From assembly GCA_965263035.1 (NCBI GenBank), contig OZ253580.1, forward strand, positions 5,984,001 through 6,048,000: a stretch of DNA of 64,000 bases. Reading direction: 5' to 3'. The notes below the pieces were generated by a model. The model was not told the origin of the DNA. It was given only the letters and a program-made list of their open reading frames with translations, and did no database searches. How positions within the stretch are numbered: the first letter of the stretch is position 1; the number at the start of each line of letters is the position of its first letter. This DNA comes from Acidobacteriota bacterium. GTDB taxonomy: Bacteria; Acidobacteriota; UBA6911; RPQK01; JAJDTT01. Shown here in pieces: positions 3,890-50,460 of this stretch. A program made the translations under genes and the position numbers.

Positions 3890-4828
3890 ATGGCTGTCGA
3901 TTCCATGAATCTCCGCGAAATGGCGCTCGAGGACCGGTCGGAAGTGGCCGAGCTCATCTACGCATCCATCAACGCCTGGTACGGCCTTCGAGGCTTGGGC
4001 CAGCCCTTTCAGGGGTCGCCCAAGGTCACGGAGATCTTCCATGAGGTCTATTCGGCGACGGGTTCCAGCCGCTGCGTGGTGGCGGAAAACGCCCGCACGG
4101 GGCGTCTCATGGGCTCCTGCTTCTACCATCCCCGAAAGACCCACGTAGGACTGGGCATCATGACCGTCCATCCCAACTACTTCGGTTTCGGCGCCGGGAG
4201 CAGACTGCTGGAGTACATCTGCCGCTTCACCGACGGGAACGGGTACCAGGCCCTGCGCCTGACCCAGAGCGCCCTGAACCTGGACTCCTTCTCGCTCTAC
4301 AACCGATACGGCTTCGTCCCTCGCCAGGCTTACCAGGACATGATCCTTCAGGTGCCCGAGTCAGGCTTGGATCACGAAGTGTCAGGACTCGACCGGGTCC
4401 GGGACGCCACTCTGGACGACGTTCCGGCGATGGCGGCTCTGGAAATGGCGGTGAGCGGAGTGAGCCGGGAGGAGGACTATCGGCTCTGCATCAAGAACGA
4501 ACTGGGTTTCTGGTCGGTCTCGGTCTACGAGGGGGCCGGCGGAAACATCGAAGGGTTTCTGGCTTCGTCGTCGCACCCGGCCTTCAACATGCTCGGGCCG
4601 GGCGTGATTCGAACGGAGCAGCAAGCCGCGGCCCTGGTCCACACGGAACTGGACCGTCACCGCGGCCGCACGCCCGTCTTCCTGGTTCCGGTCGACCGCT
4701 ACGGCCTCGTCCGTCAGATGTACGACTGGGGCGCCCGGAATTGCGAGCTCCACTTCTGCCAAGTGCGTGGCCGGTACCAGCCCTATCAGGGCATCAACAT
4801 GCCGACGTTTCTACTGGAAACCGCCTGA
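3890..4828 (+). CDS. GNAT family N-acetyltransferase
   Basis: Motif A-like VHPNYFGFGAGSRLL and SLYNRYGF; RBS GAGAGG upstream. Confidence 0.85.
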   Translation: MAVDSMNLREMALEDRSEVAELIYASINAWYGLRGLGQPFQGSPKVTEIFHEVYSATGSSRCVVAENARTGRLMGSCFYHPRKTHVGLGIMTVHPNYFGFGAGSRLLEYICRFTDGNGYQALRLTQSALNLDSFSLYNRYGFVPRQAYQDMILQVPESGLDHEVSGLDRVRDATLDDVPAMAALEMAVSGVSREEDYRLCIKNELGFWSVSVYEGAGGNIEGFLASSSHPAFNMLGPGVIRTEQQAAALVHTELDRHRGRTPVFLVPVDRYGLVRQMYDWGARNCELHFCQVRGRYQPYQGINMPTFLLETA

Positions 4829-4884
4829 TCCGGAGTGACCGGCGAGTTGGAAGAGAGACCTACTGGCGATCTGGCTCGCACCGT

Positions 4885-5115
4885 CCGCCGGTGCAGGTCG
4901 CTTGAGTCACCAACTCCCATAGTTGTTTCTTGTCCTGGATTTTTCCTTAGATGTACTCTCGGATTTCCATGCGGGCCTGCCGAATAGTGACGCACTCAGC
5001 GGACCCTGCGCCAACTCGTCTGATGCCGGACACAGAGCCAGCCTAAGATGGATTCTACGTCGCCAACTCCCCTGGTTTCAGTCCGGCATCGGAGCCCCTA
5101 TCTGAGTACCGGTCT
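4885..5115 (+). ncRNA. Candidate structured leader element upstream of LRR gene (copy 1)
   Basis: Homologous to 37870-38105. Stem TCTGATGCCGGAC (5019-5031) pairs with GTCCGGCATCGGA (5081-5093, one G-U) and covaries with copy 2. Confidence 0.5.
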
Positions 5116-5135
5116 TTGATGTCCATTGAGTACCC

Positions 5136-8100
5136 ATGAAGAAACGTTGTGGTGTGTGGATGGTGTGCTTGTTGTCGGCCGTAGTGGCCGGGACGGATCC
5201 AGCGGCGGGTGTCAAACGGGTGCAACACCAGGGCACCTCCGAGACGGTTCTGTACTTCCCCGACTACGTGGATGGTGGAGGTTGGGCGGTCCAACTGGTG
5301 CTGAGCAATATCGATCCAGACGAGGCCGCATCAGTTGAAGTTGAAGTCTTCGATCAGGAAGGCCGTTCGGTTTCGGGGTTCTTCGATTCGGAGACCACCC
5401 TTGAGATTCCGCCCCTGGGCAGTCGGGTCATGCATAGCACTGGCCAGGGAAGCATTCGGCGGGGTTGGATCCAGGTCCAGATCCAATCGGCCTCGGTCAG
5501 AGGATTGTTGACTTATCGGGACACCCAAACCGGGATCGAGGTCGGAGTCGAACCGGTCCCACTGAGTGATTCCTTTGCTCTTTTTGTCGAAGAAACGGGA
5601 GCGACCGGCACCGGTCTGGCCATTTTCAAGCCGGACGCTCCTTCTAAAATCGCATTTCAAATCTGGGACGAGGCAGGAAAGAACCCGATTGGAGGGGACC
5701 TCGTCTGGGGAGATTTCAAGCAACGGGCACGAACCATCCCGGAATGGTTCGAGGAGGTCGATCAAGAGTTCCTGGAAGACTTTCGAGGCCTCCTGTTTCT
5801 GGATGCCGAGGATGGTTCGCCGTTCGCGCCAATCGGGCTGCGGTTTGGGAAGACGGGGAATCATTCGCTCTCGGCAGTTCCCGCTATCCAGGAGCAGATG
5901 GAAGAACCGATGAAGACGACCCTGTACTTTCCCGACTACGTGGTTGGGGGAGGTTGGGCCGTCCAACTCGTGCTGAGCAATGTCGATCCGGACGAGGCAG
6001 CGTCGATAGTGGTTGAAGTCCATGATCAACAAGGGCATTCGGTTCCAGGGTTCTTCGATGCCGGGAACCGCCTCGAGATTCCGCCCCTGGGCAGCCAGGT
6101 CTGGTACAGCACCGGAGAGGCGAGCATTCGGCGGGGTTGGGTCCAGATCCAGAGCCAAACGGCCTCGGTCAGGGGATTGTTGACTTATCGGGACACCCAA
6201 ACCGGGATCGAGGTCGGAGTCGAACCGGTCCCACTGAGTGATTCCTTTGCTCTTTTTGTCGAAGAAACGGGAGCGATCGGCACCGGTCTGGCTATTTTCA
6301 AGCCCGACGCTCCTTCCGAGATCGAGTTTCAAATCCGAGACGAAGCCGGGGACGTCCCCATTGGAGGAGGCCTCGCCCGGGGGGATTTCAAGCAGCGCGC
6401 TCAAACCATTCCGGAATGGTTCGCGGGGATCGATCAAACCTTCCTGAGAGATCATCGAGGCCTTCTGCTGCTTCGAACCGAGGACGGTTCATCGTTCGCC
6501 CCGCTCGGGCTGCGGTTTGGGAAGCAGGGGAACCTTTCGCTCGCGGCAGTTCCGGCGATCCGAATCATGGACGAAGACGGGATCGAAGAAGAACCATCGC
6601 GTCCCCCAACGGTGACGATGACGGTTTCTTCGAATTCGATTGAATGGGGCCAGAGTGCAACGTTGAGCTGGTCTGCCACCGATGCGGTGAGCGCGACGAT
6701 CACGCCCGGAATTGGCGACGTACCGACGTCGGGTTCAATAAAGGTGTCTCCGACCAGCACGACTACCTACCGCATCACCGTGCTGGGAGCAGACGGCCCA
6801 ATGGATACGGCGAGGGCGTCGGCAAGGGTGACGGTAGTCATCTCAGAGCGGGCGGCGCTGGTGGCACTGAATCACGCGACTGGCGGTCTGAATTGGACTC
6901 TCAATGAGAACTGGCTGACTGACCGTCCCTTGAGGGAATGGTCTGGGGTCGATGTCGATGGCCAAGGGCGGGTGATCCGTCTAGACCTCGTCAACAATGG
7001 CCTGACCGGGACAATTCCTTCGGAACTGGGGTCGCTCACGAACCTGAGATCGCTGCATCTCGGCGCCAATGGACTGACTGGGTCGATACCAGCAGAGTTG
7101 GGCTCGCTCGCCAACCTGGAAACCCTGGAACTCGGCACAAATTTCTTGACCGGGTCGATTCCGGGGGGGCTGGGCTCACTCGCCAACTTGGAAATCCTGA
7201 ATCTATTCGGCAATCAACTTATGGGGCCGATTCCGGAGGAGTTGGGCTCGCTCGCCAACTTGGAAATCCTTTGGCTCTCCCAGAATCATTTGACTGGCCA
7301 GATCCCGGAGGAGCTGGGCTCACTCGCCAACTTGGATCGGCTCTTGATCTCCTACAATGACGTGGAAGGGCCAGTTCCCTCTTCCTTTCTCGACCTCGAC
7401 CTGGACCAATTCCGGTTCAATTCGAATGATCGTCTTTGCGTGCCCGGGACCTCCGCTTTCGTGCGGTGGTCGAAAGAGATATCCAATTTCCGAGGAGGGG
7501 CCTTTTGTAACGATGCCGACAGGGCGATCTTGGAGGTACTGCATGAGGTTACAGGTGGCTCGAGCTGGACGGATTCCGCCGGATGGCGAGGCGTTGACGC
7601 GGTGGGCGATTGGTACGGAGTAACTGTGGATTCTCTAGGCAGGGTCACATCGCTGAACCTGAGTGACAACGGACTCGACGGCCGGTTGCCAGGCAACTTG
7701 GCGCTGCTGTCCCGGTTGACCGAGTTGAGGATTGACGGCAATGCTCTGTCCGGCCGATTGCCGCTGTCCTTGTCTTCTCTCCGCTTGCTTAGGGAGTTCC
7801 GGTACGTGGACACCAATCTGTGTGTCCCGACCGGAGAATCGTTCAGCGCTTGGCTGGACACTATTCCGTTGCGCGAAGGAACGGGCGTGGAGTGTGCGCC
7901 TCCGTCGGAACGGGACATCGTCATGGCCCTATACGACGCAACGTACGGGCCAAACTGGACCAACAACGAGAACTGGCTGACCGACCGGCCCCTCGGGGAA
8001 TGGTTTGGGATCGAGGTCGATGATCAAGGACGAGTGATTCGTCTAAATCTATCCCGCAATCGCCTGAAGGGGCCGATCCCGAAGGAATTCGGATCACTCA

Positions 8101-8480
8101 CCAACCTGCAAGGTCTGCTTCTTCACGAGAATGGTCTGACGGGACCGATCCCAAAGGAACTCGGGTCGCTCACCAACCTCGAATCCCTTCTTCTCCTCAA
8201 CAATGATCTGACGGGACCGATCCCGCCGGAACTGGGTTCGCTCACGAACCTGCGCTCCTTATGGCTCCCACAAAATAATTTGACGGGGCCGATCCCAAAG
8301 GAACTCGGGTCACTCACCAACCTGGAAGGGTTACTTCTCGAAGTTAACGATCTGACGGGGCCGATCCCGCCGGATTTAGGCTTGCTCACCAATCTGGATA
8401 CTCTGTGGCTCGGCAGCAATAATCTGACGGGGCCGATCCCAGGAGAACTGGGCGCCCTCGCCAACCTCAGGACCCTAGGC
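5136..8480 (+). pseudogene. 5' part of giant secreted LRR-metalloprotease gene, interrupted by IS4
   Basis: Signal peptide; two 224-aa repeats (period 672 bp); Ig-like segment; three plant-type LRR blocks (LxLxxNxLTGxIPxELGxLxxL) with LRRNT caps. Frame is cut at the IS4 TSD. Confidence 0.9.
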
Positions 8481-10945
8481 CTGCCCTATACCCACAAATA
8501 GTGCTGGACAAACAAGAATGCCTGTCGTAGTCTTCACGACATGGTAGTTCAGAACCAGATCAAGCGCACCTTGAGCCGAGAGTTGGATCGTTTGCACGCC
8601 GTGATGAGGCGGGAGAAGTTCGCCCACCGGACGGCGCTGGCGGACCGGGTCTGCTCGGAGTTTGGATTTCACGATGCCCGAGGGCGGGCGCAACGGAGCG
8701 GCTGCCTGAAGGCGCTCCGGGAGCTGGAGGCGGGCGGACGGATTCGTCTGCCGACGCCGCGACGGCGGGTGAACCATTGCGGGCCCCGAGGACTGGGCCG
8801 TGCGGTGCCGGAGCCGGTCGGGGTGCCCGAGACGGTGGACGGCGTGCGGGAGCTGGAGTTGATTCTGGTGGAGACGGGTCCGCAACGAGCGCTCTGGAAC
8901 GAGTTGATGGCGCGAGAGCATCCACGGGGCGCGGGGCCGTTGGTGGGTGCTCAACTACGCTATCTGGTGGGCTCGGCCCACGGCTGGCTGGGGGGCTTGG
9001 GGTTCGGGGCGGCGGCGTTGCGGTTGCGGGACCGGGACCGCTGGATCGGATGGGATGAGGAACAACGCCGGGCGCACCTGCACCGGGTGGTGGGGCTGAG
9101 CCGGTTTCTGATCCGTCCGTCAGTGAGGTGTCGTAATCTGGCCTCCCGGGTGCTGGGGGAGGTGTTGCGGCGGCTGGGTCCGGAGTTCCAGGCGCGCTAC
9201 GGCTACCGTCCCTGGCTGGTGGAGACCTTCGTGGAGACGGCTCGCCACGATGGGGCCAGTTTGCGCGCCACGAACTGGAGGGTTCTGGGGCAGACGCAGG
9301 GTCGAGGCCGGCAAGATCGGGCGCACCGGGGTGCGGAGACGAGCAAGGCGATCTATGGGTATGAGTTGTGCCGGGATTGGCGTCGGCGGTTGGGGGTGGG
9401 ACCGGCGCCGAGGCGGGGAGTGGAACCGATGTCGGAGGGCGAGGGACTGGAGGGAGAGGGCTGGGCTCAGCAGGAGTTGGGCGGGGCGCCGCTGGGAGAC
9501 CGGCGCTTGAGTCGGCGACTGGTGGAGAGTGCGCACCGTCAGGCGCAGGAGCCGGGGCGGGCGTTCACGGGAGTGGCGCGGGGCGATCCGGCGGCGGTCA
9601 AGGGATACTACCGGCTGATCGACCAGCCGGAAGCCTCGGCGGTGACGGTGTCCAACATCCTGGCCCCGCACCGGGAGCGGACCCGGCAGCGGATGCAGGG
9701 GCAGCGGACGGTGCTGTGCATCCAGGACGGGAGCGATCTGAACTTCACGCGGCACGGCCGGTGTGAGGGACTGGGGGTGATCGGGCGCAACCAGACGGGA
9801 GCGACGGCGCGGGGACTGCATCTGCACGCGACGCTGGTGGTGAGTGAGACGGGGCTGCCGCTGGGGGTGTTGCGGGCGAAGCTGGACGCGCCGAAGCCGG
9901 GACCGGTGGCCACGCGGAAAAAGAAGAAGACGTATCGCTGGATCGAGGGACTTCGGGACTGCGCCGAGGTGTCGCGGTCCCTCGACGGGGTGCGGGTGGT
10001 CAGCGTGGTGGACCGGGAGGCGGATTTTTTCGCACTGTTCGCCGAGCAACGAGCGTCTCCGGAGGTGGAGTTGCTGGTGCGTGCGAAGCAGGATCGGGTG
10101 CTGAAGCGGAAGACCCGGGCGAAGGCGGCCGGGAAAAGCGCGGATCCGGACCCGGAGCAGAAGCGGAAGCTGTTCGGGCGCCTGCGATCGGCGCCGGTGC
10201 GGGCCCGGATGCTGCTGGAGGTGAAGCGTCAGAGTGCGCGGATCAAGGCCAGCAAGCAGGCGGCCCGCCCGGGGCGGCTGGCGCGGGTGGCACGGATGGA
10301 ACTGCGCTACGAGACCCTGACGATTCCGGCGCCGCGCGGGAACCCAAGCGGCATCCCGTCGCTGAGACTGTCGGTGGTGCACGCGCGGGAGGTCGCGCCG
10401 CCGGCGCAGGGGAAGCGCCTGGAATGGTTCCTGCTCACCACCCTGCCGGTGACCGATGCCGAGACGGCGCAGCAACTGCTGAGATGGTATGCCCTGCGCT
10501 GGCGGGTGGAGGATTATTTCCGGGTGCTCAAGACCGGATGCCGGGTGCAACAGCTCCAGCACCAAACCGCCGAACGTCTGAAACGGGCCATCGCCATGCA
10601 CGCCGTCATCGCCTGGCGGATCATGCTGATGACGCTGCTGGGGCGAGAGGACCCGGACCTGCCGGCGCAATTGTTGTTCTCGGATCTGGAAATCCGGGTC
10701 CTGGGGGCGTTTGCCGCGTCGCGACGATACCCACCGCCGGAAGACCTGGGGGCGGCCGTGCTCGTGCTGGCCCGCCTGGGAGGATATCTGGCTCGTAAAC
10801 ACGACCCCCCACCCGGGCATCAACTGATGTGGCAGGGCTACGTCACGCTCTACGGCATGTGTCTGGGCTTCGCTTTACGAGAAGAAACATGAATGAAACC
10901 GGACCCAGGCTAATGTGCCCTGTGCAATATGTGGGTAAAGGGCAG
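8481..10945 (+). mobile_element. Complete IS4-family insertion sequence (2465 bp)
   Basis: TIRs CTGCCCTATACCCACA (8481) and TGTGGGTAAAGGGCAG (ending 10945); 8-bp TSD CCCTAGGC at 8473-8480 and 10946-10953. Confidence 0.95.
8541..10892 (+). CDS. IS4 (IS50-like) transposase with N-terminal DUF4338-like domain
   Basis: LGDRRLSRRL, IQDGSDLNF, VVDREADFF, YALRWRVEDYFRVLKTGC (YREK) and LGGY...DPPPG motifs; N-terminal GAQLRYLV...RFLIRPSV...LVETFV...NW...G.T.GRG domain. Confidence 0.92.
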   Translation: MVVQNQIKRTLSRELDRLHAVMRREKFAHRTALADRVCSEFGFHDARGRAQRSGCLKALRELEAGGRIRLPTPRRRVNHCGPRGLGRAVPEPVGVPETVDGVRELELILVETGPQRALWNELMAREHPRGAGPLVGAQLRYLVGSAHGWLGGLGFGAAALRLRDRDRWIGWDEEQRRAHLHRVVGLSRFLIRPSVRCRNLASRVLGEVLRRLGPEFQARYGYRPWLVETFVETARHDGASLRATNWRVLGQTQGRGRQDRAHRGAETSKAIYGYELCRDWRRRLGVGPAPRRGVEPMSEGEGLEGEGWAQQELGGAPLGDRRLSRRLVESAHRQAQEPGRAFTGVARGDPAAVKGYYRLIDQPEASAVTVSNILAPHRERTRQRMQGQRTVLCIQDGSDLNFTRHGRCEGLGVIGRNQTGATARGLHLHATLVVSETGLPLGVLRAKLDAPKPGPVATRKKKKTYRWIEGLRDCAEVSRSLDGVRVVSVVDREADFFALFAEQRASPEVELLVRAKQDRVLKRKTRAKAAGKSADPDPEQKRKLFGRLRSAPVRARMLLEVKRQSARIKASKQAARPGRLARVARMELRYETLTIPAPRGNPSGIPSLRLSVVHAREVAPPAQGKRLEWFLLTTLPVTDAETAQQLLRWYALRWRVEDYFRVLKTGCRVQQLQHQTAERLKRAIAMHAVIAWRIMLMTLLGREDPDLPAQLLFSDLEIRVLGAFAASRRYPPPEDLGAAVLVLARLGGYLARKHDPPPGHQLMWQGYVTLYGMCLGFALREET

Positions 10946-27900: not shown

Positions 27901-29415
27901 ATGATGAGATCAAGTCTACTCGCGGCTCTGCTGTTCGCAACACCGGCGTTGACTGCCGGCAGTCACCACGAGACCCAGACTCTGGACATCGGCGACCGGC
28001 TGGAGCTCATGGTGGACGGCTACTTGATCGACTCCATGACCGGGGACGTCCGGCTGGAGCTTCAAACCCCCACCTCCGGCGGCAGAGTGCTCCACTTCGA
28101 CAAGCCTTGGGAGGGCACGACCTGCTTCTACGTCTCGGTGGTCCATGGCGACGGCCTCTATCGCATGTACTACCGGGGCCACAGTCTCCCGTCCTCCGCG
28201 GTCCCGTCCCTCCTGGAACCGGGCGAGACCATGGTCCCCGAACATCCCGAGGTGACCTGCTACGTCGAGAGCCGGGACGGCCGGACCTGGACCAGGCCTT
28301 CTCTGGGGCTGGTGGAGTTCAACGGGTCGAAGCAGAACAACATCATCTGGGACGGCTTCGGCAACCACAACTTCATGGTCTTCCTGGACACCAATCCCAA
28401 GACTCCACCCGAGGAACGGTACAAGGCATTGGCCTCGGGGCAACCCAACCGCCCCTTGAAGCGGATGGTCGGGATGGTTTCTCCCGACGGGGTCCACTGG
28501 AAGCCGATCCGCGAGGAGCCTATCCTCACGCAACCTCCTACGGACTGGGGAGGGGACGGGATCTTCTGGGACGGGTTCAGAAACCGGTACGTCGCCTATC
28601 TGCGAGTCTGGTTTCCACCCCGTCACGTTGGATCCGCCGAGCGCCGGTTCCCCACGATCCGGGCCATCGGCCGGGCCACCTCGCCCGATTTCCTGAATTG
28701 GAGCAAGCTGGAGGACATCGAGCTGGGAGACGGTCCCCGGGACCAGTTCTACACCAACGGCATCACGGCCTACTACCGGGCGCCCCACATCTTCCTGGGC
28801 TTCCCCAAACGCTTCGTTCCCTGGCGGACCCAGCTTGCCGATTCGCCCGAGAACGGGGTTTCCGACACGGTGTTCATGACCAGCCGCGATGGCCTGAACT
28901 GGGACCGCAAGTTCCCCCAGTCCTTCATCCGGCCCGGGCGCGAGAAGAGGAACTGGCACAACCGCAACAACATGACGGCCACGGGGGTGGTCTCCACCGG
29001 AGACGATGAGATCTCCCTCTACGTGCTCCGCCACTACAAGTTCCCCACCATTCACATGGAGCGCATGGTCCTGCGCACCGACGGGTTCGTTTCCCTCAAC
29101 GCCGGCTACCGCGGAGGCGAGGTCGTGACCAAGCCCCTGACCTTCAAGGGGAGCAACTTGGTGCTCAATTTCGCCACCTCGGCGGCGGGGAGCATCCACA
29201 TCGAGATCCAGGACGAAGCGGGACGAGCGCTCCCTGGATTTGCCCTGGAGGAATCGCCGCTGGTCTGGGGGGACGACATCGAGCATACCGTCCGCTGGGA
29301 GCGGTCCCACGCCCGGGCGACGTCGAAAGAGCCGTTGAAGCGGATCGCGGGCAAACCAGTCCGGCTGCGCCTGGTGATGAAGGACGCCGACCTCTTCTCG
29401 CTACGGTTTCGTTGA
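27901..29415 (+). CDS. Secreted beta-propeller glycoside-hydrolase-like hypothetical protein
   Basis: Signal peptide; DKPWEG, YRMYYRG, SRDG..W repeats, LRTDGFVSL, C-terminal GKPVRLRLVMKDADLFSLRF. Confidence 0.75.
   Translation: MMRSSLLAALLFATPALTAGSHHETQTLDIGDRLELMVDGYLIDSMTGDVRLELQTPTSGGRVLHFDKPWEGTTCFYVSVVHGDGLYRMYYRGHSLPSSAVPSLLEPGETMVPEHPEVTCYVESRDGRTWTRPSLGLVEFNGSKQNNIIWDGFGNHNFMVFLDTNPKTPPEERYKALASGQPNRPLKRMVGMVSPDGVHWKPIREEPILTQPPTDWGGDGIFWDGFRNRYVAYLRVWFPPRHVGSAERRFPTIRAIGRATSPDFLNWSKLEDIELGDGPRDQFYTNGITAYYRAPHIFLGFPKRFVPWRTQLADSPENGVSDTVFMTSRDGLNWDRKFPQSFIRPGREKRNWHNRNNMTATGVVSTGDDEISLYVLRHYKFPTIHMERMVLRTDGFVSLNAGYRGGEVVTKPLTFKGSNLVLNFATSAAGSIHIEIQDEAGRALPGFALEESPLVWGDDIEHTVRWERSHARATSKEPLKRIAGKPVRLRLVMKDADLFSLRFR
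29131..29415 (+). repeat. 3' end of 27901 gene, repeated at 43921-44205 and 45830-45922
   Basis: 285-bp copy with about 22 mostly synonymous differences (hand count); a third 93-bp copy also ends at a stop codon. Confidence 0.92.
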
Positions 29416-32710: not shown

Positions 32711-33034
32711 TTGATTTTCGTCATCAGTCAAGGGGCGACGGACTGGAAGCGGTTGTGGCAGAGACTGGCGCGGGTGTGCTGGGCGCCGGGATAGTGGACG
32801 GAGGAGGCATCGGGCCCGTGGAAGGGACCGAAACGGTGGGAATATCTCACCGGAAAGTCAACCTGTCGGCGGGTGACGCTCCCCCTGGCCGGCAAACAGT
32901 TTAGGACTGGTTCAATCGTCCTGTTTTCGAGCCGATTCAGTCGAATCGACAGAGGTTCAAGAGAAACCCGGCTGCGACCGCACGAAAACGCCGGGTTGGA
33001 AGCCCTTATCAACATGTCCCATGAATAATCTGGG
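32711..33034 (+). mobile_element. IS1380-family right-end fragment
   Basis: Near-identical to 58945-59268, including the transposase C-terminus (LIFVISQGATDWK) and right IR ATGAATAATCTGGG. Confidence 0.9.
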
Positions 33035-35925: not shown

Positions 35926-36907
35926 TCAGACGGAGATCCGCTCGACGATGTTGCGGGTGACGCGTCGCCGGCACCGGTCGTAGATCTGCGTGGTGCGGGG
36001 ATGGGAGTGCCCGGCCAGGTACCGGACGTCCTCAAACGGCACGTTCTGGCTCAGCAGATCCGTGACCGCCAGGACCCGGAAGGAGTGGGGCGAGAGGATC
36101 TCCGGCAGCCCGGCCGCCTGGAGCCGGCGCTTGAGCATCCGCCTGACGGCGTGAGGCGAGAAGGGCCGATCGGTAAGGGTGCCGTGCCGGCTCTCTCCGG
36201 CCCGAAACATCACCGACCCCTTGGGCGCGGCGCCGAGCCCGGCCCCCTCGATGTAGGCCGTGAGCCATCGGTCCAGGTCATGGCGCACGGGGATCTCCCG
36301 GGCTTTGCCGCCCTTCTCGGCAAACAGGAGCGAGCGCAGGCTCCTAGTCCCGCAGATCCTGGATCCGGAGCCGGGTGATGGCCCCGACGTGGGCGCCAGT
36401 GTAGATCAGGGTCCCCAAGACCGCCCGGTCCCGAAGTCCGAATACATGGCTGGTATCGATCGAGGCGAGGAGTTGCCGGGCTTGGCGAACCGTCATCTCG
36501 GGGATCTTTCCGTCTCCGAACGGATTCCGGACGCCGCGAACCGACTGAAAGGGATTGAGTACCGCCGCGTGGCGGCGGACGAGGGCGTCGAAGAAGTGGC
36601 GCAATCCGGCCAGAGCCTGGTTCTTGTTGGCGGCCTCGCCGGGGAGCTGCTCGATGAAGCGGCCGGCGGTTCCTGGCGTGACTTGCCGCAGCTCGAGTCC
36701 CTGGGCCTCGCACCAGGAGAGGAACTCGCTGACGGCCCGGGCGTAGGAGCGCCGGGTGTGGGGGCTGGAGATCTGCGCCGAGAAGAACTCATCGGCCGCA
36801 AAGCAGGCGGCTTTCCCGGCGCGCACGAGGATGGCCGGGAAGGCCGTTTGGAGGTGGTTTTTCGCTGGCGTGGCCGACGTTTTCAGGGCGATCTTCTGAT
36901 GACTCAT
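35926..36907 (-). pseudogene. Tyrosine recombinase (phage-integrase family), inactivated
   Basis: SAM-like N-domain (TRRSYARAV), GLRDRA..., EKGGK, HSFR, LAGH, TTQIY. Catalytic R is replaced (YTGAH instead of YTGAR) and there is a stop/frameshift at about 36344. Confidence 0.9.
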
Positions 36908-36911
36908 TCTC

Positions 36912-36939
36912 GGGTACGATAATATGCTTTGTCGTACCC
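36912..36939. other. Putative recombinase crossover site, type A (copy 1)
   Basis: GGGTACGATAA-TATGCT-TTGTCGTACCC: 11-bp arms (1 mismatch), 6-bp spacer, 4 nt from the recombinase start codon. Confidence 0.75.
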
Positions 36940-37011
36940 TGCACCACGCCCCTGACTCCCCATTCTCTGCGACGGCCGTGCGCTATTCCATCCCCTTCTG
37001 TCCCCACCCGG

Positions 37012-37039
37012 TGAGCCCATTCCGACGAGAAAATCACCT
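37012..37039 (+). promoter_or_regulatory. TGAGCC-N17-CACCT promoter-like motif
   Basis: TGAGCC cattccgacgagaaaat CACCT. Confidence 0.65.
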
Positions 37040-37139
37040 TTCATTGTGTCGTGAAAGTGAAATCATTTCGGGAAACCAATCGGGGGAACCGGGGACCCGC
37101 TCCGTGGGTCCCCGGTTCCCCAAGACAGGAGGAAGACCT

Positions 37140-37688
37140 ATGAAGCGATGGAGTCAAAATGAAGGAACCCGTCGGCATCTGTGGAACCGGGCCCTCATCC
37201 TGCCGCTGTGCGCTTGCCTGGTGCTCGCCGGCAGTGTGACGCATCCCGTCTGGTCCGCCGGAGCCTCCGAGGACGAGCGGCTGCACGAACTTCTCAGAGG
37301 CAAGAAGATCCATGCGGCCTTCAAGAACTACGGCTTCGTGTCGGGCCAGGTCAAGGAAGTCCAAGAGAACGCCCTGAGAGTCGATGTCACTAAGAGTTTC
37401 AATCTCAGTTTGATTTCGACTGGGGTTCAGGACATCCCCATCGAGCGGATTTCCACCGTGCGCTGGACGGCAGGGTCCAAGAACAGAAAGATTTTCTTCA
37501 CGGTGGGCTTTGCAATCGGAATTGTTGGGGGGCTTTGGCTTACGGGAAGTGGAGCTAATGTACTCGCATTTATGGGAACTACAGCGGGGGGAGGACTACT
37601 TGGGTACTTTGTGGGTTCGAGAATGGACCATAGGAGCATCGACCTTGGGACCCACCGACCGCCGACGGGGCGCCCGCCCAAGAAATAA
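37140..37688 (+). CDS. Secreted protein: beta-rich domain plus Gly-rich hydrophobic C-terminal hairpin (family member 1)
   Basis: RBS AGGAGG; signal peptide; ends GGGLLGYFVGSRMD; paralogous to 40660 and 44648. Confidence 0.72.
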   Translation: MKRWSQNEGTRRHLWNRALILPLCACLVLAGSVTHPVWSAGASEDERLHELLRGKKIHAAFKNYGFVSGQVKEVQENALRVDVTKSFNLSLISTGVQDIPIERISTVRWTAGSKNRKIFFTVGFAIGIVGGLWLTGSGANVLAFMGTTAGGGLLGYFVGSRMDHRSIDLGTHRPPTGRPPKK

Positions 37689-37869
37689 GAGTGCGAGCCA
37701 TAAGCGGCCCCCTGAGCTGGCCGACAACTGGATCACGAGCTGGATGGCCGTCCCCACTGATTCGGCGAGCCAAGTGAAATCGCCCTACCGTACATGAACG
37801 GAAACCACAGCGATGACCTGTCGAGAACAATTCAGAGGGGAACCCGAGTGACCACTGGGCGCGGGCCGG

Positions 37870-38105
37870 CCGCCGGTGCAGATCGTTTAGGCCGGCAACT
37901 CAACAAGTCGTTTCTTGTCCTGAGTTTTCTCCTGCAGTATTCTTGGTGTCCTGAAGGCGAGCCCGCCAAGTGTAGCAGCACCCGGCAGGCTCTAAGCCAA
38001 CTCGACCTATGCCGGAGGACGAGCCAGCCTGGTAGATATTCTATTCCACCATCCTCCCTGGTTTCATTCCGGCATAGGTCCTCTCATCGGAGTCAGGATC
38101 TTCCG
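37870..38105 (+). ncRNA. Candidate structured leader element upstream of LRR gene (copy 2)
   Basis: Homologous to 4885-5115. Perfect stem GACCTATGCCGGA (38004-38016) / TCCGGCATAGGTC (38068-38080). Confidence 0.5.
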
Positions 38106-38193
38106 ACTGCGGAGAATGAAGGCCTCCAACCCGCGCCAGGTCCACTCCTAATTGGGCACACATGGATCCCGACCCATTCACGAGGGAGAAACC

Positions 38194-40569
38194 ATGACCA
38201 CCTTTGAACACACCGAAGACAACATCGTGTTTCGGTGCCGCTCCGGCTCGTGGGGAGGCCGATTTTTCCGAACGAGCATATTGCAAGACAAACTCGTCTC
38301 TTTCGTTTTGTCCTCGGCAGTGGGGTGCCTCACGGTCGTCTTGCTGCTGGCGGCGGCGCCCCCTTTGCAAGCCTGCGACGATGGTTGGACGGTGCCGGAT
38401 CCCGAGAACAATTCCGGTCTGGTGGAGGACTGTAGAGTCCTTCTGGCTATACGCGATGACTTGGCCGGGACCGGCTTCTTGAACTGGGAGTTTGGTTTGC
38501 CCATCGACCGCTGGGGCGGTATCCGCGTCTCGGCATCTCCCAGCCGCGTGCGGCAGTTGGTCCTGTTTGGAGACGACCTGTCAGGGTCGATCCCGTCGGG
38601 ACTGGGTCGGCTGTCCCAACTGCAGACGTTAAGGCTCCTTAGCCGGCAACTGATGGGGCCGATCCCACCGGAATTGGGACAATTGTCGCATCTGGAGGAG
38701 TTGAGCCTCTCTGGCGACCGGCTGGGAACGATTCCTGCCGAGTTGGGGCAGCTCTCCCGCCTTCGTCGGTTGGGACTCGTCGGCAATCAGCTGACGGGTC
38801 CGATCCCCGCCGAGTTGGGTCAACTGTCCAATCTCCGTCGGTTGCATCTTCAGAACAACGAATTGACAGGCCCAATTCCGGCCGAACTGGGCCAACTATC
38901 TCAGTTGGAGGCGATGTCGCTTGACCACAACAAACTGACGGGTCCGATCCCCGTCGAGTTGGGACAGCTGTCCCAGTTGGGCGAAGGGTTGCATCTCCAG
39001 AACAATCAACTGACGGGGCAGATTCCGGGCGAACTGGGTCGACTGTCTCAACTTTGGGGGGAATTGGATCTACGGAACAACCAGCTAGCGGGTCCGATTC
39101 CCGCCGAGTTGGGTCAACTGTCCCAGCTGACACGCTTGTACCTTCAAGACAACCAGCTGACCGGATCGATCCCGCCGGAACTGGGACAAATGTCCCGGTT
39201 GCTGGAGTTGTATCTCCACAACAACAAACTGACGGGTCCGATTCCCGCCGAACTGGGAAAACTCTCCCGGCTGTGGCGCCTGCACCTGCAGAACAACGAG
39301 TTGACAGGATCGGTTCCGGCCGAACTAGGGCAACTCTCCGAGTTGCAGGAGTTCGGTTTCCGGGGCAATCGGCTGACGGGATCGGTTCCCACCGAGTTGA
39401 GTCATTTGCCCGATGTGTACGTATTGAACTTGCACGCGCGCCGGACCACCCCAGAACAGATTAAGGTCACCTGGGACGATCCGGGTGACCCCAGCACCGA
39501 TTACGAGTACCGGCTCGTGCTGCGGGATGAGAACCTGAACTATACGGTGACAGACTGGACCGAAATTGAAGATCCAGAGGCGACACTGGGTGGGGGCGAA
39601 GGGGTCACCATCGAATGGACTTTGACCAACCTGCCAGCCGAACTCGATGTCGTCTCGGTCCGTTTGAGGGCGAAGAACGAGAACGGTCCAAGTCCGCCAG
39701 CATCGGCTCCAATAGAACCCTTCCAGGTTTCCGAGGATGTGGATCTACCCTACTGCCGTTCGCTGTGGCCGGGACGGGCGCGTTGCACCACCACTACAGT
39801 CCTGCCTCACGTCTTCATGGGCCCTCTCGGCGAGGATGAGGCCCGAGCCGAAATCCTCATTACCAACCGCAGCGGGTTTGTAGCTTGCGACCTGGCGCTG
39901 CTCTTTCACCAGGGAACTTCCGAAGCTCCGCAGGTATTGTTCGACAACGAGCCGCTCGAGGGGAACCTGTTCGAGACCAACCTTTCCAGGGGAGCTGCAC
40001 GGATCCTGACCTTGACGTCGGATTCGGAAGAGCTGGTGGTCGGGGCGGTCTCGGTCTTCGTCCGCGTTCCCTGCTCGATCACCTCGTTCCAGGTTCGGGG
40101 ACGTTACCTCGTAGAAGATCGGATGAGCGGAGATATCCAAGAGCTCTTTTCCGTTTCCGGCCAGTCTCCGCGGGAGTGGCTCGGAAATGGGGATTGTCAA
40201 GTCTTGACCGGAGCCTTCGGCCCGGGACGCAATCTCGGTTTTGCCTCGGTGACGACCGAACCGAATCAGGGTGCTCCGGCGGGGACCCAACTCCATTTCC
40301 AGGCCTTCGATCTGGAGGGGAACCCCATGGACGACCCACCCAGCATGGAGATCACCGGCGCACAGACCGCCTCCTTTCCCTGGAGCTTCCAGGAACCCAC
40401 CATCCTCAAGATGTGCCTGGAGGTTCCGGAGCCGGACAGTCAATTCCAGCTCTCGACCATCGCCATCGGCGTCGTCCAGAAGGGGAACAACGTGCAATGG
40501 AGTGATGAACCCGCCGTCGAAGTCACGCCAGCAGGTCAACCCTCGGGCTGGCCGGACACCCGGCCCTGA
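38194..40569 (+). CDS. Secreted leucine-rich repeat protein with FN3-like and C-terminal beta domain
   Basis: LRRNT (GLVEDCRVLLAIRD...W.G); about 12 LxLxxNxLTGPIPAELGQL repeats; VTW...YEYR...LRAKNENG FN3-like segment. Confidence 0.9.
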   Translation: MTTFEHTEDNIVFRCRSGSWGGRFFRTSILQDKLVSFVLSSAVGCLTVVLLLAAAPPLQACDDGWTVPDPENNSGLVEDCRVLLAIRDDLAGTGFLNWEFGLPIDRWGGIRVSASPSRVRQLVLFGDDLSGSIPSGLGRLSQLQTLRLLSRQLMGPIPPELGQLSHLEELSLSGDRLGTIPAELGQLSRLRRLGLVGNQLTGPIPAELGQLSNLRRLHLQNNELTGPIPAELGQLSQLEAMSLDHNKLTGPIPVELGQLSQLGEGLHLQNNQLTGQIPGELGRLSQLWGELDLRNNQLAGPIPAELGQLSQLTRLYLQDNQLTGSIPPELGQMSRLLELYLHNNKLTGPIPAELGKLSRLWRLHLQNNELTGSVPAELGQLSELQEFGFRGNRLTGSVPTELSHLPDVYVLNLHARRTTPEQIKVTWDDPGDPSTDYEYRLVLRDENLNYTVTDWTEIEDPEATLGGGEGVTIEWTLTNLPAELDVVSVRLRAKNENGPSPPASAPIEPFQVSEDVDLPYCRSLWPGRARCTTTTVLPHVFMGPLGEDEARAEILITNRSGFVACDLALLFHQGTSEAPQVLFDNEPLEGNLFETNLSRGAARILTLTSDSEELVVGAVSVFVRVPCSITSFQVRGRYLVEDRMSGDIQELFSVSGQSPREWLGNGDCQVLTGAFGPGRNLGFASVTTEPNQGAPAGTQLHFQAFDLEGNPMDDPPSMEITGAQTASFPWSFQEPTILKMCLEVPEPDSQFQLSTIAIGVVQKGNNVQWSDEPAVEVTPAGQPSGWPDTRP

Positions 40570-40587
40570 GAGCCACCCCCGACCTGG

Positions 40588-40615
40588 TGAGCCCATTCCA
40601 GCGGAAAAATCACAT
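40588..40615 (+). promoter_or_regulatory. TGAGCC-N17-CACAT promoter-like motif
   Basis: TGAGCC cattccagcggaaaaat CACAT. Confidence 0.65.
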
Positions 40616-40659
40616 TTACTGCTGCTAGGACGATCCAAACCATGAAGGGGGTACACGCC

Positions 40660-41115
40660 ATGAGAGGTCTGACGATTGAGAGTCAAGGATGGCTCAGGAT
40701 AACCACAGCGATGGGAGTGATCTCCTTGCTGCTAGCGCCAGTCACGACCGACCTATTCTGTGCTCCCCGGACAGAGAAGTTCGGGTCGGCGATTTATCGA
40801 AAAATGGTGTGGAACGAACTTCCCGCCTTTCTCGAAGGAGAAAAGAAGGTCACCATCGTGCTCGCCGAGGGGGGCGCAGTCCGCGGCGACGTGGCCGGGG
40901 TGCCGGACAATGGCATCCATCTCAGTCGCGTTTCAATGACTACCAACGGGTGGCTCTACCCGACGGGTTCGGACGCTTTGATCCCCAGATCCTCGGTCAA
41001 AGAAATACGTGTGGAGAAACGCGGTGGGCTTAATCGCGTCGGGGGTGCTGTTCTGGGCTACCGGATGGGCAAACGCGCGGATGTCGAGACCACCATCATC
41101 ATGATCGTGGACTGA
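40660..41115 (+). CDS. Secreted protein family member 2 (shortened Gly-rich region)
   Basis: Signal peptide; KVTIVLAEGGAVRG...IPRSSVKEIRV; ends GGAVLGYRMGKRAD. Confidence 0.7.
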   Translation: MRGLTIESQGWLRITTAMGVISLLLAPVTTDLFCAPRTEKFGSAIYRKMVWNELPAFLEGEKKVTIVLAEGGAVRGDVAGVPDNGIHLSRVSMTTNGWLYPTGSDALIPRSSVKEIRVEKRGGLNRVGGAVLGYRMGKRADVETTIIMIVD

Positions 41116-41199
41116 TTCCCCAAGGTATCGAGAATAGCTTGGAAGACGACCGCTCGCCGGAACCCCTCAGCAAGCTGAAAATGGCGATCCTCTGGGTAA

Positions 41200-41225
41200 C
41201 GTCTGTTAACTGAAATTAACGGACG
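41200..41225. other. Putative recombinase crossover site, type B (copy 1)
   Basis: CGTCTGTTAA-CTGAAA-TTAACGGACG: 10-bp arms (1 mismatch), same spacer as the 45677 site. Confidence 0.6.
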
Positions 41226-42301: not shown

Positions 42302-43926
42302 GTGTTTCTCGCCCGTGTTCCACGCTCCAGACGGTAGAGGTTAAGTTCCAGCAACTCGCAGCGGACGTCGTCGTCAGTGATGTCAGCACGCCATCCATAG
42401 GCATCCGCAACCGCAGAGTCGAGCGTTGCGTGGGCGTCGGCGAGCCACTGTGGCCGGGCGTTGTAGAGATTCGTCAGCGTGCGCTTCTTGAGTTCCTTCG
42501 CCGCTGTTTCGTTGCGAGGAACGGGACGCTTCGGATAACCGGGAACCGGCTCGTCCACCCATTCGACCCATTCCGATGGGTTTAGCCAGCGGTCGCGACG
42601 CTCGACTAGTTTCTGCGCCGCTTCCGCAATGGTGACGGCGTGCGGATCGTCCGCATAGTCGGCGGAGGGAATGTCCGGAGATAGCCCCTCCGGGAAGGGG
42701 AAGGGCTCGAAAGTCGTGGTCGGGGTGTAGCGCGGATCATTGCCCTTGCCGACCGACGTCCCAAGCCGAAGAGACCAGATCTCGTGGAACCGGCTATGCA
42801 GGATGCCGAAGGTTGTGTCATCGTCGCGCGCGATGATGATCAATTGGTGATCGGGACAGATACGTGTGTCAAGCCACGAGAACACGCGATGCTTCGCGAC
42901 GGTTGGCGTAACGATGCAGCGCGAGCGCCCGGCGAGCACGGCCCACATGCCCTGTCTCGGCTCCACGTGGCGCCACCAGTACTCACGATACGTTTTCCGC
43001 CGATTCCGCTGGCGCATCGGGTAGACACGTTCCTGCACTCGTCGGAACGGCTCTTCGTATAGCGCCGCATCACCTTCCGGCATCGTCCACCCGAAGTCGA
43101 CGATCCACTTCCCCGCCGGCCGCTGGGTCACGTCCCTCCCGTTCACCCACGGCTTCAGGACATCGGCGTTCGTGCGGCCGTTCGGGTTCGCTGGCAGACG
43201 GAGCCACTCACGAGCCTGATCACCCGCAATGTCGAAGGGACCACCCTTCGTGTCGCCCATGAACGCGACGTTAGCATTCTCCGCAAGACGGCCGGCACTC
43301 GTCAGATCGACGCCAGCACCACCGCGGCGCGCTGTCAGGTCCGCATAGACCTCGTCGACAGCCTGGCCATCGAGCCAAATTCCAGCCAGGGATTCGTCGC
43401 CGGCACGCGAGAAGCAAACCGGTGACACCCGCACGGCCGCTCCGTCGACGACCCATGGCTCGTCGCTCCACGCCTCGAAGATCGACCGATTGTGCGTCGC
43501 GGTCGTTAGCATACGGCGGTTCGCTCCACCCCGGATGGAGTTGGTTGCAACAAGCCCGACCCGCTTCGCCTTGCCGGATGCAATCTGCTGGCCCGCCTTC
43601 TCGAACCAGTAGCAGACCAAGTCGGCTTCCGCCGGTACACGGCCAGCGTAGGTCGCGAACATCCGCGACACGTAGCCCTCGCCCAAGTGCGTAATCAGGA
43701 GCTTGCCGCCCAGAAACGGCGGGTTGCCGATGATGACATCGGCATCAGGCCAGTCTGGCTCGGTTCCGTCCGGCGCAAGGATCGCGTCTCGGCACTCGAT
43801 CGTGTCAAGCGGCTTCAGGATCGGGTCACGCGCCTCCGCGAAACCATTGCGCCGCATCCACTGGATCTCGCCGATCCAGACCGACACCCGCGCAAGCTCC
43901 GCCGCGTAGGGGTTGATTTCAAGCCC
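42298..43926 (-). pseudogene. Type IIL/IIG (MmeI-like) DNA methyltransferase-TRD, 5' half deleted
   Basis: GLEINPYAAELA, VIIGNPPFLG (motif IV), ADLVCYWFEKA, TNSIRGG, RYTPTTTFEPFPFP, RTLTNLYN. Upstream of GLEIN the sequence switches to the duplicated 29131 segment. Confidence 0.88.
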
Positions 43927-44205
43927 CTGACCTCCAAGGGGAGCAACCTGGTGCTCAACTTCGCCACCTCGGCGGCGGGGAGCATCCACATCGAGATCCA
44001 GGACGAAGCGGGACGGCCGCTTCCCGGCTTCGCACTGGAGGAATCGCCGCTGGTCTGGGGAGACGACATCGAGCACACCGTCCGCTGGGAGCGGTCCCAC
44101 GCCGGGGCGACGTCGAAAGAGCCGTTGAAGCGGATCGCGGGCAAACCGGTGCGCTTGCGTCTGGTGATGAAGGACGCCGACCTGTTTTCGCTACGGTTTC
44201 AGTGA
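43921..44205 (+). repeat. Copy 2 of the 27901 gene 3' end
   Basis: KPLTSKGSNLVLNFATS...DADLFSLRFQ-stop; about 92% identical to 29131-29415. Confidence 0.92.
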
Positions 44206-44508: not shown

Positions 44509-44576
44509 AACCCCCGCCCCTGATCTCTGATTTCTGCGCCGGCCGGGACACTCGAGCTCCTCTTTTTTCAATCCGG

Positions 44577-44604
44577 TGAGCCCATCCCGGAGAGAAAATC
44601 ACAT
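44577..44604 (+). promoter_or_regulatory. TGAGCC-N17-CACAT promoter-like motif
   Basis: TGAGCC catcccggagagaaaat CACAT. Confidence 0.65.
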
Positions 44605-44647
44605 TTACCCCTGACGGGATCATCCCAACCCGGAGGAGGTCGATGCC

Positions 44648-45704: not shown

Positions 45705-45774
45705 AGACTGCTCACACTTGATTCAGACTCTGCGCCGTCCGTGCGCTTTCCCGTCCGCTTCTGTCCCAATCCGG

Positions 45775-45802
45775 TGAGCTCCTGCCGGTGGAAAAATCAC
45801 AT
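45775..45802 (+). promoter_or_regulatory. TGAGCT-N17-CACAT promoter-like motif (no intact downstream gene)
   Basis: TGAGCT cctgccggtggaaaaat CACAT, followed by the third copy of the 27901 3' end. Confidence 0.6.
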
Positions 45803-45829
45803 CTGTTTGTACCGTGTCGGACGAAGAGT

Positions 45830-45922
45830 TCGGAGGAACCCTTGAAGCGAATCGCGGGCAAACCGGTGCGGCTGCGTTTAGTGATGAAGGACGCCGATCT
45901 CTTTTCGTTGCGGTTCCGGTGA
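45830..45922 (+). repeat. Copy 3 of the 27901 gene 3' end
   Basis: Encodes SEEPLKRIAGKPVRLRLVMKDADLFSLRFR-stop. Confidence 0.88.
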
Positions 45923-50406: not shown

Positions 50407-50434
50407 TGAGCCCCTTCCGGCGAAAAAATCACAT
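50407..50434 (+). promoter_or_regulatory. TGAGCC-N17-CACAT promoter-like motif
   Basis: TGAGCC ccttccggcgaaaaaat CACAT. A decayed site (TAA-AGCATT-CTACTGGACCC, about 50319-50338) lies at the usual distance upstream. Confidence 0.65.
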
Positions 50435-50460
50435 CTGTCTATGGTGAGCTTGGAGGAGCT

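Follow-up and report, generated by a model that had tools for sequence, protein, structure and literature searches.

The window (the whole stretch of 64,000 nucleotides (nt) analysed here, from a 6.2-megabase (Mb) Acidobacteriota genome) carries two leucine-rich repeat (LRR) genes, and in front of each lies a copy of the same conserved element, which we call copy A and copy B. An initial annotation, made from the letters of the window, had described this element as a leader of about 220 nt with a long covarying stem and had proposed either an undescribed cis-regulatory RNA or a small mobile unit linked to eukaryotic-like protein genes. We find that the element has two sets of helices, one on each strand, both conserved by compensatory change and each with its own strand-specific wobble pairs, that a promoter motif for the antisense strand lies at a fixed place within it, and that the unit stands in a fixed cis relation to the downstream start codon. 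Read from its sequence, it is probably a portable cassette in which a leader and a convergent antisense RNA are encoded as two overlapping predicted transcripts. The main features of the two window copies are the following.

4951..5106, plus strand: copy A, family unit (sense model; genome 5988951-5989106, 139.3 bits)
37937..38092, plus strand: copy B, family unit (sense models R1/R2; genome 6021937-6022092, 170.9 bits; 153.8 bits with the second model)
4971..5012, minus strand: copy A, hairpin P1 of the sense strand and H2 of the antisense strand; folds
37956..37998, minus strand: copy B, hairpin P1, equal to antisense H2; folds
5019..5093, plus strand: copy A, sense helix P2; folds
38004..38081, plus strand: copy B, sense helix P2 (outer arms 38004-38017/38069-38081; inner GAGCCAG 38021-38027/CTGGTTT 38059-38065)
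37836..37914, plus strand: upstream block present in a sub-family only (copies A, B and C, and three from genus relatives) and not part of the family model
About 4850-4929: the equivalent upstream block of copy A
5136..8501, plus strand: LRR gene behind copy A, 1121 amino acids (aa), signal-peptide-like N-terminus
38194..40569, plus strand: LRR gene behind copy B, 791 aa, with a hydrophobic segment and LQAC near residue 60

All five sequence blocks that the initial annotation had listed as shared are found in both copies (alignment of about 240 nt, 75% mean column identity), and the long stem lies where it had been placed, with TCTGATGCCGGA (5019-5030) facing TCCGGCATCGGA (5082-5093) in copy A and (G)ACCTATGCCGGA (38004/5-38017) facing TCCGGCATAGGTC (38069-38081) in copy B. 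It encloses 51 nt in each copy, the inner GAGCCAG/CTGGTTT pairing is there, and its covariation exceeds chance across 80 distinct copies. The extent of the leader had to be revised: a conserved unit exists, but its family-wide length is about 150 nt, and the further 70-110 nt or so upstream (CCGCCGGTGCAG..., GTTTCTTGTCCTG) are common to a sub-family only (6 of the 9 copies compared) and contain the sense promoter. The anatomy of a single leader likewise held in part. The long stem does belong to a sense leader, whereas the blocks GCCAACTCG and GAGCCAGCCT, the 'loop' and the first hairpin, P1, which had been overlooked altogether, are explained by signals of the opposite strand, a promoter and an RNA of two hairpins. 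The fold of copy B is much better than those of its shuffled versions (z −6.7, none of 200 as good). Copy A is only slightly better than its shuffles (z −1.8, 6 of 200) and is the most degenerate of the 15 copies in the genome, by this fold and by its antisense-model score, which is the lowest.

An RNA family of one Acidobacteriota lineage

A DNA search of the window's own genome reported seven related places, and the first covariance model, built from these seven copies, found 15 full-length copies and one partial copy of 93 nt. All eight genomes of relatives in the genus carry the element, with 5-13 matches listed per genome. A second model, made from 39 sequences, matched 20 of the 76 genomes searched in the order at an E value of 1e-4 or better: 12 of 14 in family f1, 1 of 10 in f14, 1 of 15 in f7, 1 of 3 in f12, and the single genome of each of f10, f11, f15 and f16; no genome of families f6 (0/16), f9 (0/5) and f5 (0/3) matched at that threshold. 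In the class, 18 of 137 genomes matched at 1e-6 or better, only one of them outside the order, and an even sample of 151 genomes of the phylum added one weak match (34 bits) outside the class. Relatives found by exact pattern lie in metagenome-assembled genomes of Acidobacteriota or Terriglobia at 13 of 14 loci; the fourteenth, on a Ferruginibacter contig, was not confirmed by the covariance model. Two pattern scans of metagenome contigs gave no matches and five matches, respectively, none of the five confirmed by the model, but the patterns have low recall (the first recovers 16 of the 77 known copies, the second an untested share) and these scans therefore say little on the range of the family. 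The alignments used below derive from 84 model matches, 80 of them distinct and 77 full-length and distinct, mostly from one Acidobacteriota family; they are paralogues and orthologues and thus not independent samples.

A scan of the 64-kilobase (kb) window against Rfam at gathering thresholds returned no match on either strand. Permissive scans of Rfam 15 with copy A, copy D and 16 diverse copies returned matches at chance level (E 0.2-10) or an unrelated tRNA only, and no family of Rfam 15 reached its cut-off on either strand, including the antisense, countertranscript and riboswitch families as well as Acido-1 (RF01686) and Acido-Lenti-1 (RF01687), whose accessions are given in PMC2864571. 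Neither full-text literature searches nor consultation of PMC11109978 and PMC2864571 turned up a description of the element. What is new is the RNA family, the way in which both strands make use of nearly every conserved base, and the repetition of the module in front of unrelated exported-protein genes; cis-antisense (countertranscript) control of a leader is a kind of regulation that is already known. The proposal of an undescribed cis-regulatory RNA is thus borne out as far as an undescribed RNA in a cis position is concerned, given the lack of an Rfam match, the covariation, and the fixed orientation and distance to the start codon.

That the region might be a decayed coding sequence had been named as a way in which the initial proposal could fail; a leader peptide was considered too. 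Open reading frames (ORFs) of 60 and 137 aa do overlap the two window copies; across the 77 copies, no frame is conserved as open, the best anchored one being open in 21 and each plus-strand frame containing 1.6 stops on average. With compensatory substitutions in the helices as well, we regard a coding origin as hardly credible.

Helices and promoter motifs on both strands

In the alignment of 80 distinct copies the sense two-hairpin structure is 86.8% paired, and 30 of its 36 pairs are changed on both sides in some copies. Such double changes number 273 cells as against 79 ± 7 in shuffled alignments (none of 500 shuffles as high) and 29-61 in controls with the structure slid along the alignment. 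The long helix P2 has 21 pairs, 18 of them with double changes, and consists of 1120 Watson-Crick, 195 G·U and 41 A·C cells; its helices 4 and 5 are paired in 89% and 85% of cells. Since G·U exceeds A·C, P2 is under selection as an RNA of the plus strand, and its paired fraction is indeed 87.9% for sense RNA, falling to 77.6% if it is read as antisense RNA. P1 behaves in the opposite way. On the sense strand it has 20 G·U and 115 A·C cells, with A·C at 14 of the 15 pair positions, and its paired fraction rises from 84.8% for sense RNA to 93.1% when it is read as antisense RNA; because A·C prevails on the sense strand, we conclude that P1 is selected as an RNA of the minus strand, where it is hairpin H2.

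The promoter signals also fall on both strands. A promoter scan tool reported a single site in each of the three copies tried, on the opposite strand and inside the unit, with the form c/aTGAAA, 17-18 nt, TAGAAT; the same tool did not report the sense promoter. The most conserved 'unpaired' block of the sense strand, A-u-U-n-U-A, reads T-A-n-A-a-T on the opposite strand, where positions 2 and 6 hardly vary and position 3 is free; −10 boxes are conserved in this way, and the conserved 8-mer around it is read as an antisense −10 box. (A third sense hairpin, P3, around this 8-mer was tried and rejected: the mean stem was 3.22 base pairs (bp) as against 3.13 in shuffles, 114 of 500 of which were as high.) The block GGUUUCA is the antisense −35 box. 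This promoter scores at least 9/12 in 39 of 77 copies, compared with 10 of 385 shuffles and none of 77 on the sense strand inside the unit, and its −10 box lies at unit positions 95-104 in 72 of 77 copies. On the sense strand, a sigma-70-like pair (TTGnnn or similar, 16-18 nt, TAnnnT) stands upstream of the unit in 27 of 77 copies, compared with 2 of 77 control windows. In the window the promoter-like sites and the predicted antisense RNA, which we took from about 7 nt past the backward −10 box to a few bases past P1 (about 82 nt), are located as follows.

4930..4935, plus strand: copy A, sense −35-like TTGTCC, 18 nt before TACTCT (4954-4959)
37915..37920, plus strand: copy B, sense −35-like TTGTCC, 17 nt before the −10-like TATTCT; 8/12 to consensus, under the threshold of the scan tool
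37938..37943, plus strand: copy B, sense −10-like TATTCT; a contig from an RNA library starts 6 nt downstream, at 37949
5052..5081, minus strand: copy A, antisense promoter (CTGAAA 5081-5076, 18-nt spacer, TAGAAT 5057-5052), the only promoter-like site in 4750-5250
38062..38067, minus strand: copy B, antisense −35-like ATGAAA, the only promoter-like site in 37700-38300, where 0.1 is expected from shuffles
38038..38043, minus strand: copy B, antisense −10 TAGAAT, equal to the AUUCUA 'loop' of the plus strand (family pattern T A n A a T)
4963..5046, minus strand: copy A, predicted antisense RNA with a degenerate H1 (60.7 bits, lowest of 15; fold z −0.8)
37949..38032, minus strand: copy B, predicted antisense RNA of about 82 nt, putative start near 38031 (model R3, 93.1 bits; two hairpins, z −3.5)
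37994..38030, minus strand: copy B, antisense hairpin H1, in which the complements of the linker AAGCCAACUCG and of GAGCCAGCCU pair around the loop CCGGCAU

The predicted antisense RNA folds into two hairpins, with z scores of −5.3 to −5.6 in four of the six copies tried, the other two being B and A. H2 is the complement of P1 and is paired in 97-98% of cells. The arms of H1 are two of the blocks listed by the initial annotation, GCCAACTCG and GAGCCAGCCT; because their pairing uses several G·U pairs, AAGCCAACUCG and GAGCCAGCCU cannot pair on the sense strand. Three positions of H1 have G·U in 45-58 of 76 rows, which would be A·C on the sense strand, and its columns change along wobble paths (column 7-37: UG 35, UA 21, CG 15; column 8-36: GU 45, GC 14, AU 10). 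Over the 77 copies, 91.2% of the cells of the antisense alignment are paired and double changes occur in 18 of 28 pairs. One pair of the model, 14-30, is spurious, with pairing in 6 of 73 rows only. The double changes amount to 152 cells, as against 28 ± 5 in shuffled alignments (none of 500 as high) and 25-37 in slid controls. As in a countertranscript, then, an opposite-strand promoter lies, at the level of sequence, inside the leader, and the opposite-strand RNA has conserved stem-loops of its own. A search of the genome with the antisense model returned the same 15 loci and the partial copy, and no free-standing antisense gene.

Downstream of the unit, a word like that of the Shine-Dalgarno (SD) site and a start codon follow within 45 nt, opening an ORF of at least 60 aa, in 33 of 74 copies, compared with 4 of 74 on the other side and strand. 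An automatic rule assigned a ribosome site to 30 of the 77 copies, a U-run directly after P2 to 11, and neither to 36, of which at least 8 were found by eye to have a nearby start codon too. The G+C-rich stem followed by a U-run that marks an intrinsic terminator is absent from copies A and B and present in those 11 copies, for example in the leader of the gene for a BNR-domain protein.

RNA libraries provide a further, unstranded view. Three metatranscriptome runs contain the region, and in one of them, X19, a contig of 142 nt covers 37949..38090 with a depth of 61, compared with 5-9 over the gene; its ends are 6 nt after the sense −10 box and 9 nt after P2. In a second RNA run of the same study, a contig with a depth of 18.7 also ends at 38090 but reaches back to 37798, while a DNA run is continuous across the cassette. 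The gaps between RNA contigs at 38091-38227 and the upstream read-through in run X18 are not interpretable. Since the contigs are unstranded, may sum near-identical paralogues and, in both runs, come from one study, they give only a weak hint that a discrete species of leader size (sense, antisense or both) accumulates.

These data bear on three other explanations. In the first, the unit would be a structured leader of the sense strand only, riboswitch-like or a protein-binding 5′ untranslated region (UTR), that gates a regulon of exported proteins, and the antisense signals would be coincidental. Many copies per genome before heterogeneous exported-protein genes, two 3′ contexts (ribosome site in 30/77, U-run in 11/77) and a short, abundant contig of leader size would all suit such an RNA, but each conserved 'unpaired' block is accounted for more simply on the other strand (as a −10 box, a −35 box or the arms of H1), P1 pairs worse as sense RNA, the linker and the GAGCCAG block pair on the sense strand only through A·C, and the range is very narrow, with one weak match in the sampled genomes outside the class; we consider this explanation unlikely. 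The second makes the antisense RNA the main product, a small RNA (sRNA) family of about 80 nt acting in trans, whose CU-rich, anti-SD-like H1 top, CUCUUCCUCC, would bind the ribosome sites of many mRNAs, the overlap with the leader being secondary. No copy stands free, the 15 copies and the partial one all coinciding with leader units, the units keep one place and one orientation with respect to the start codon downstream, and the sense-strand selection on P2 requires a sense RNA. These facts make a trans-acting sRNA improbable to a similar degree, even though conservation in the family peaks in the H1 region (complement of GGAGGAAGAG included), both promoter and helix pairing are better for the antisense RNA, and the 11 U-run copies would yield a small sense RNA and not an mRNA leader. 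We hold it less probable still that the unit is a constitutive 5′ module, a promoter with a stabilising leader like the ompA 5′ UTR, copied together with highly expressed exported-protein genes or recombined onto them and involving no switching. A hairpin close to the predicted 5′ end, a long hairpin before the ribosome site and an abundant fragment of leader size would fit it, yet it leaves unexplained the two helices selected on the opposite strand and the conserved backward promoter.

A proposed antisense gating of the leader

The portable-cassette reading, which we prefer, can be put as follows. The sigma-70-like promoter (TTGTCC, 17-18 nt, TAnnnT) would start the mRNA a few bases before P1, giving a leader of about 140 nt that ends in P2 and is followed, in many copies, by the ribosome site and the start codon of the downstream ('cargo') gene. 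A second, better promoter (cTGAAA, 17-18 nt, TAGAAT), inside the top of P2 and facing backwards, would produce the antisense RNA of about 82 nt with hairpins H1 and H2, which is fully complementary to the first 82 nt or so of the leader, namely P1, the linker and the 5′ arm of P2. The antisense RNA may pair with the nascent leader, possibly beginning at the complementary, copy-specific loops of P1 and H2; as it is complementary to P1, the linker and the P2 5′ arm, pairing would prevent the formation of P2. The 3′ arm of P2 and the top of H1, UCCUCCGGCAUAGGAC, are almost identical in sequence, so both would compete for the same partner. With the 5′ arm of P2 kept from its 3′ arm, the fate of the mRNA would be altered: in the U-run copies antisense pairing would oppose termination, and in the copies with a ribosome site either the freed 3′ arm of P2 could mask that site or the duplex might be cleaved. 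Mutual interference is also to be expected between the head-on promoters, which stand about 80-90 bp apart. Our guess is that the net effect is repression of the cargo gene in most copies. The P1/H2 loops are not the same in all paralogues (the 15 copies have about ten versions) and could both begin the pairing and give each copy its own specificity; loop-initiated, copy-specific pairing is what plasmid countertranscripts do.

Several observations weigh against this cassette reading. The copies being paralogues and orthologues, the p-values overstate the evidence. The promoter consensus was taken from model bacteria, and the antisense promoter scores 8/12 or less in 38 of the 77 copies. No U-rich terminator was found after H2, where only 1-4 U follow, so the 3′ end of the antisense RNA is a guess. 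The RNA contigs, besides the limits given above, could include DNA. The start codon is 43 nt (copy A) and 113 nt (copy B) beyond P2 and thus not adjacent to it. Finally, folding lends no support to the steps of the mechanism downstream of pairing. Masking of the ribosome site by the leader is backed weakly by the folds, in which this site is slightly more paired than usual (median unpaired probability 0.205 in 32 copies vs. 0.277 in 200 background genes, one-sided p 0.04), and pairing between the P2 3′ arm and the spacer between SD and AUG is clear in a subset only, with 19 of 30 copies below the background mean. Pairing of a 5′-terminal UUCC with the SD site occurs in some copies and is lacking in others.

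A more far-reaching possibility is a bistable switch. Head-on promoters together with an antisense RNA whose specificity lies in the H2/P1 loop might let a host-associated Acidobacteriota lineage toggle individual exported or surface proteins, LRR and ankyrin proteins included, cell by cell, as an RNA analogue of phase variation on a movable cassette. We regard this as conceivable but doubtful.

The proposed mechanism has relatives among well-known systems. The plasmid countertranscripts CopA/CopT (R1), RNA I/RNA II (ColE1) and FinP/traJ are antisense RNAs of 70-110 nt with two or three stem-loops, complementary to a 5′ leader (in CopA, upstream of the ribosome site), which start pairing at their loops and act through the fold of the leader. 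The cassette is like them in its short, multi-hairpin RNA antisense to a leader; unlike it, they control genes of plasmid replication or transfer, and no Rfam model of them matches the cassette on either strand. FinP-like systems use a FinO/ProQ chaperone domain, and no gene with it (PF04352) was found in the genome. Type I toxin-antitoxin loci such as hok/sok and aapA/isoA are chromosomal and multi-copy, with a folded leader, an antisense promoter inside it, a downstream product with a hydrophobic N-terminus and, often, insertion sequences beside them; their toxins are smaller than about 60 aa, however, whereas the cargo of the cassette is 66-1121 aa long and belongs to many unrelated families. 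In IS10, RNA-OUT and RNA-IN arise from close, opposed promoters, and the antisense RNA, a stable stem-loop, overlaps the 5′ end of the mRNA. The cassette differs in having neither a transposase as cargo nor an Rfam match, and in an overlap that excludes the start codon. Riboswitches of the c-di-GMP-I (GEMM) class have a two-hairpin outline, and a genome can contain many of them, upstream of various genes whose products are secreted or lie at the surface; their model does not match, and the conserved blocks of the cassette are accounted for by the antisense promoter boxes and the H1 arms of the opposite strand. A Csr/Rsm-type system is not indicated either, as the genome, which is 97% complete, has no match to CsrA (PF02599). 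An Hfq-like match in it is sub-threshold only.

A close likeness is with RnaG/icsA of Shigella flexneri, in which, according to PMC2879508, a cis-antisense promoter lies inside the leader of an exported-protein gene and transcriptional interference was shown between convergent promoters 120 bp apart (about 80-90 bp in the cassette). There, RnaG overlaps the first 120 nt or so of the icsA mRNA, the hairpins of both RNAs are remodelled on pairing, and icsA is controlled by transcriptional interference together with altered folding of the nascent leader (PMC2879508). RnaG is a single-copy RNA of 450 nt that creates a terminator on pairing, whereas the RNA of the cassette has about 82 nt and occurs 6-15 times per genome before unrelated genes. 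Unlike in RnaG, the target in the cassette is the 5′ arm of a pre-existing long helix, which is itself terminator-like in 11 of 77 copies. We found no similarity of sequence or model between the cassette and RnaG.

Cargo genes, genomic surroundings and significance

The link to eukaryotic-like protein genes that the two window copies had suggested proved too narrow. Of the 15 copies in this genome, three (those of the window and another at 6.168 Mb) are followed by LRR genes; the others precede genes for a 781-aa protein without a Pfam family, BNR-repeat, ankyrin-repeat membrane and HIRAN-domain proteins, a 289-aa membrane protein (two copies) and further proteins without a family. Trypsin-like and zincin-like proteins, a permease and many unnamed proteins are the cargo in relatives. 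Most of these products appear to be exported: a strongly hydrophobic stretch is present in the first 70 residues in 20 of 30 cargo families and in 22.7% of 3146 genes (binomial p 3e-7), by a crude measure that takes one hand-picked representative per family and a background of crudely called genes. A PEP-CTERM-type sorting signal was considered and dropped, as no such NCBIfam model matched 14 cargo proteins at E 0.01. Anti-phage defence systems are represented by domain-level matches only (HIRAN, ankyrin, protease). Near the copy beside an FGE-sulfatase-domain gene no reverse transcriptase was found, and a diversity-generating retroelement at this copy was therefore rejected.

Transposase or integrase genes adjoin several copies (Tn5-like and IS630 here; IS1595, IS200-like and Mutator in relatives), and the cassettes sit in transposase-rich DNA. 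Among 15 flanking ORFs at ten distant loci there is no conserved neighbouring regulator; these flanks contain transposases of three families, a phage P63C-domain gene and a restriction-enzyme fragment. A repeat that acts as DNA, either mobile or recombining, with single-stranded hairpins as recognition sites of a transposase or recombinase, could account for such neighbours and for a distribution that is patchy outside one family, and G·T mismatches are tolerated in DNA hairpins too. We nevertheless give it little chance, in view of the fixed orientation and distance to the cargo start codons, of neighbouring transposases that come from five families with no single associated enzyme, and of strand-specific helices on both strands with promoter signatures in the right places. 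Insertion blind to gene orientation, as expected of an insertion sequence or a miniature inverted-repeat transposable element, is not seen (33/74 vs. 4/74), and because the orientation is fixed, the small mobile unit of the initial annotation finds no support as a transposable repeat.

Some further observations concern individual copies. The partial cassette of 93 nt is inverted (genome 5711594-5711686, minus strand) and lies about 330 nt upstream of copy E, just beyond which is an IS630-type transposase gene; about 40 nt upstream of the partial copy is a GGTGAGCCC...AAAATCAC motif (5711724-5711751, minus strand). If the contig is a closed circle, 7 of the 15 copies fall within about 560 kb, from 5.98 Mb to 0.34 Mb. 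The best-conserved orthologous copy (L037, at genome 4823404, with its orthologues L116-L122, in all eight genus genomes) has no adjacent ribosome site; it is followed by about 100 conserved nt and an arginine-rich putative ORF of 45-47 aa, with the same length range in all nine copies examined.

Others concern the window. The first LRR protein has a tandem-duplicated N-terminal domain (5242-5541 and 5914-6213, 84% DNA identity between the halves) with weak similarity (E 3e-4) to a secreted cargo protein of the cassette in a sister genus, g2; the family of this protein comprises only hypothetical secreted Acidobacteriota proteins with an (L)YFPxF/YxxG motif. A second upstream motif consists of a pyrimidine-rich run, GGTGAGCCC, 11 nt and AAAATCAC; the genome has 7 sites with its strict core, 5 of them within the window, and a reversed-pattern control gave none. 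Its sites in the window are:

36981-37043
40557-40619
44546-44608
45744-45806
50376-50438
53607-53641

The site at 44546 precedes a small lipoprotein-like gene (MRRRT...) whose homologue in a genus relative (L131) is preceded by the cassette instead, and because of this replacement the two 5′ modules look interchangeable. The window also contains near-identical repeats (32711-33010 vs. 58945-59244, 95%; 29109-29408 vs. 43899-44198, 90%; a third, partial copy at 45830-45922), which end at stop codons and so suggest genes recently duplicated within it. Repeats with a period of 99 nt (33 codons) at 63248-63823 are as expected for ankyrin-type repeats. Over 36800-41200, an RNA run labelled sponge metagenome has contig pieces that match the second LRR gene, in its 3′ half free of repeats, with 96-99% identity, which suggests that a close relative lives in a sponge.

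Most known cases of cis-antisense control of a leader are single loci on plasmids, in transposons, in toxin-antitoxin pairs or at a few virulence genes. Here that logic would recur as a compact module of about 150 bp in front of at least 30 cargo gene families, mostly exported, in an uncultured lineage. Nearly all of its conserved bases do double duty: they belong to a helix arm of one RNA and, for the other RNA, to a second helix arm or a promoter box. It was the count of G·U against A·C pairs, taken helix by helix, that showed one 'motif' to be two RNAs on opposite strands. If confirmed, the cassette would be a natural, portable 'antisense-gated promoter-leader' part and a way into the question of how the secreted and surface proteins of these bacteria are coordinated or diversified. 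Given the sponge-labelled run, the eukaryotic-like proteins of symbionts in sponges would become a regulon open to direct testing.

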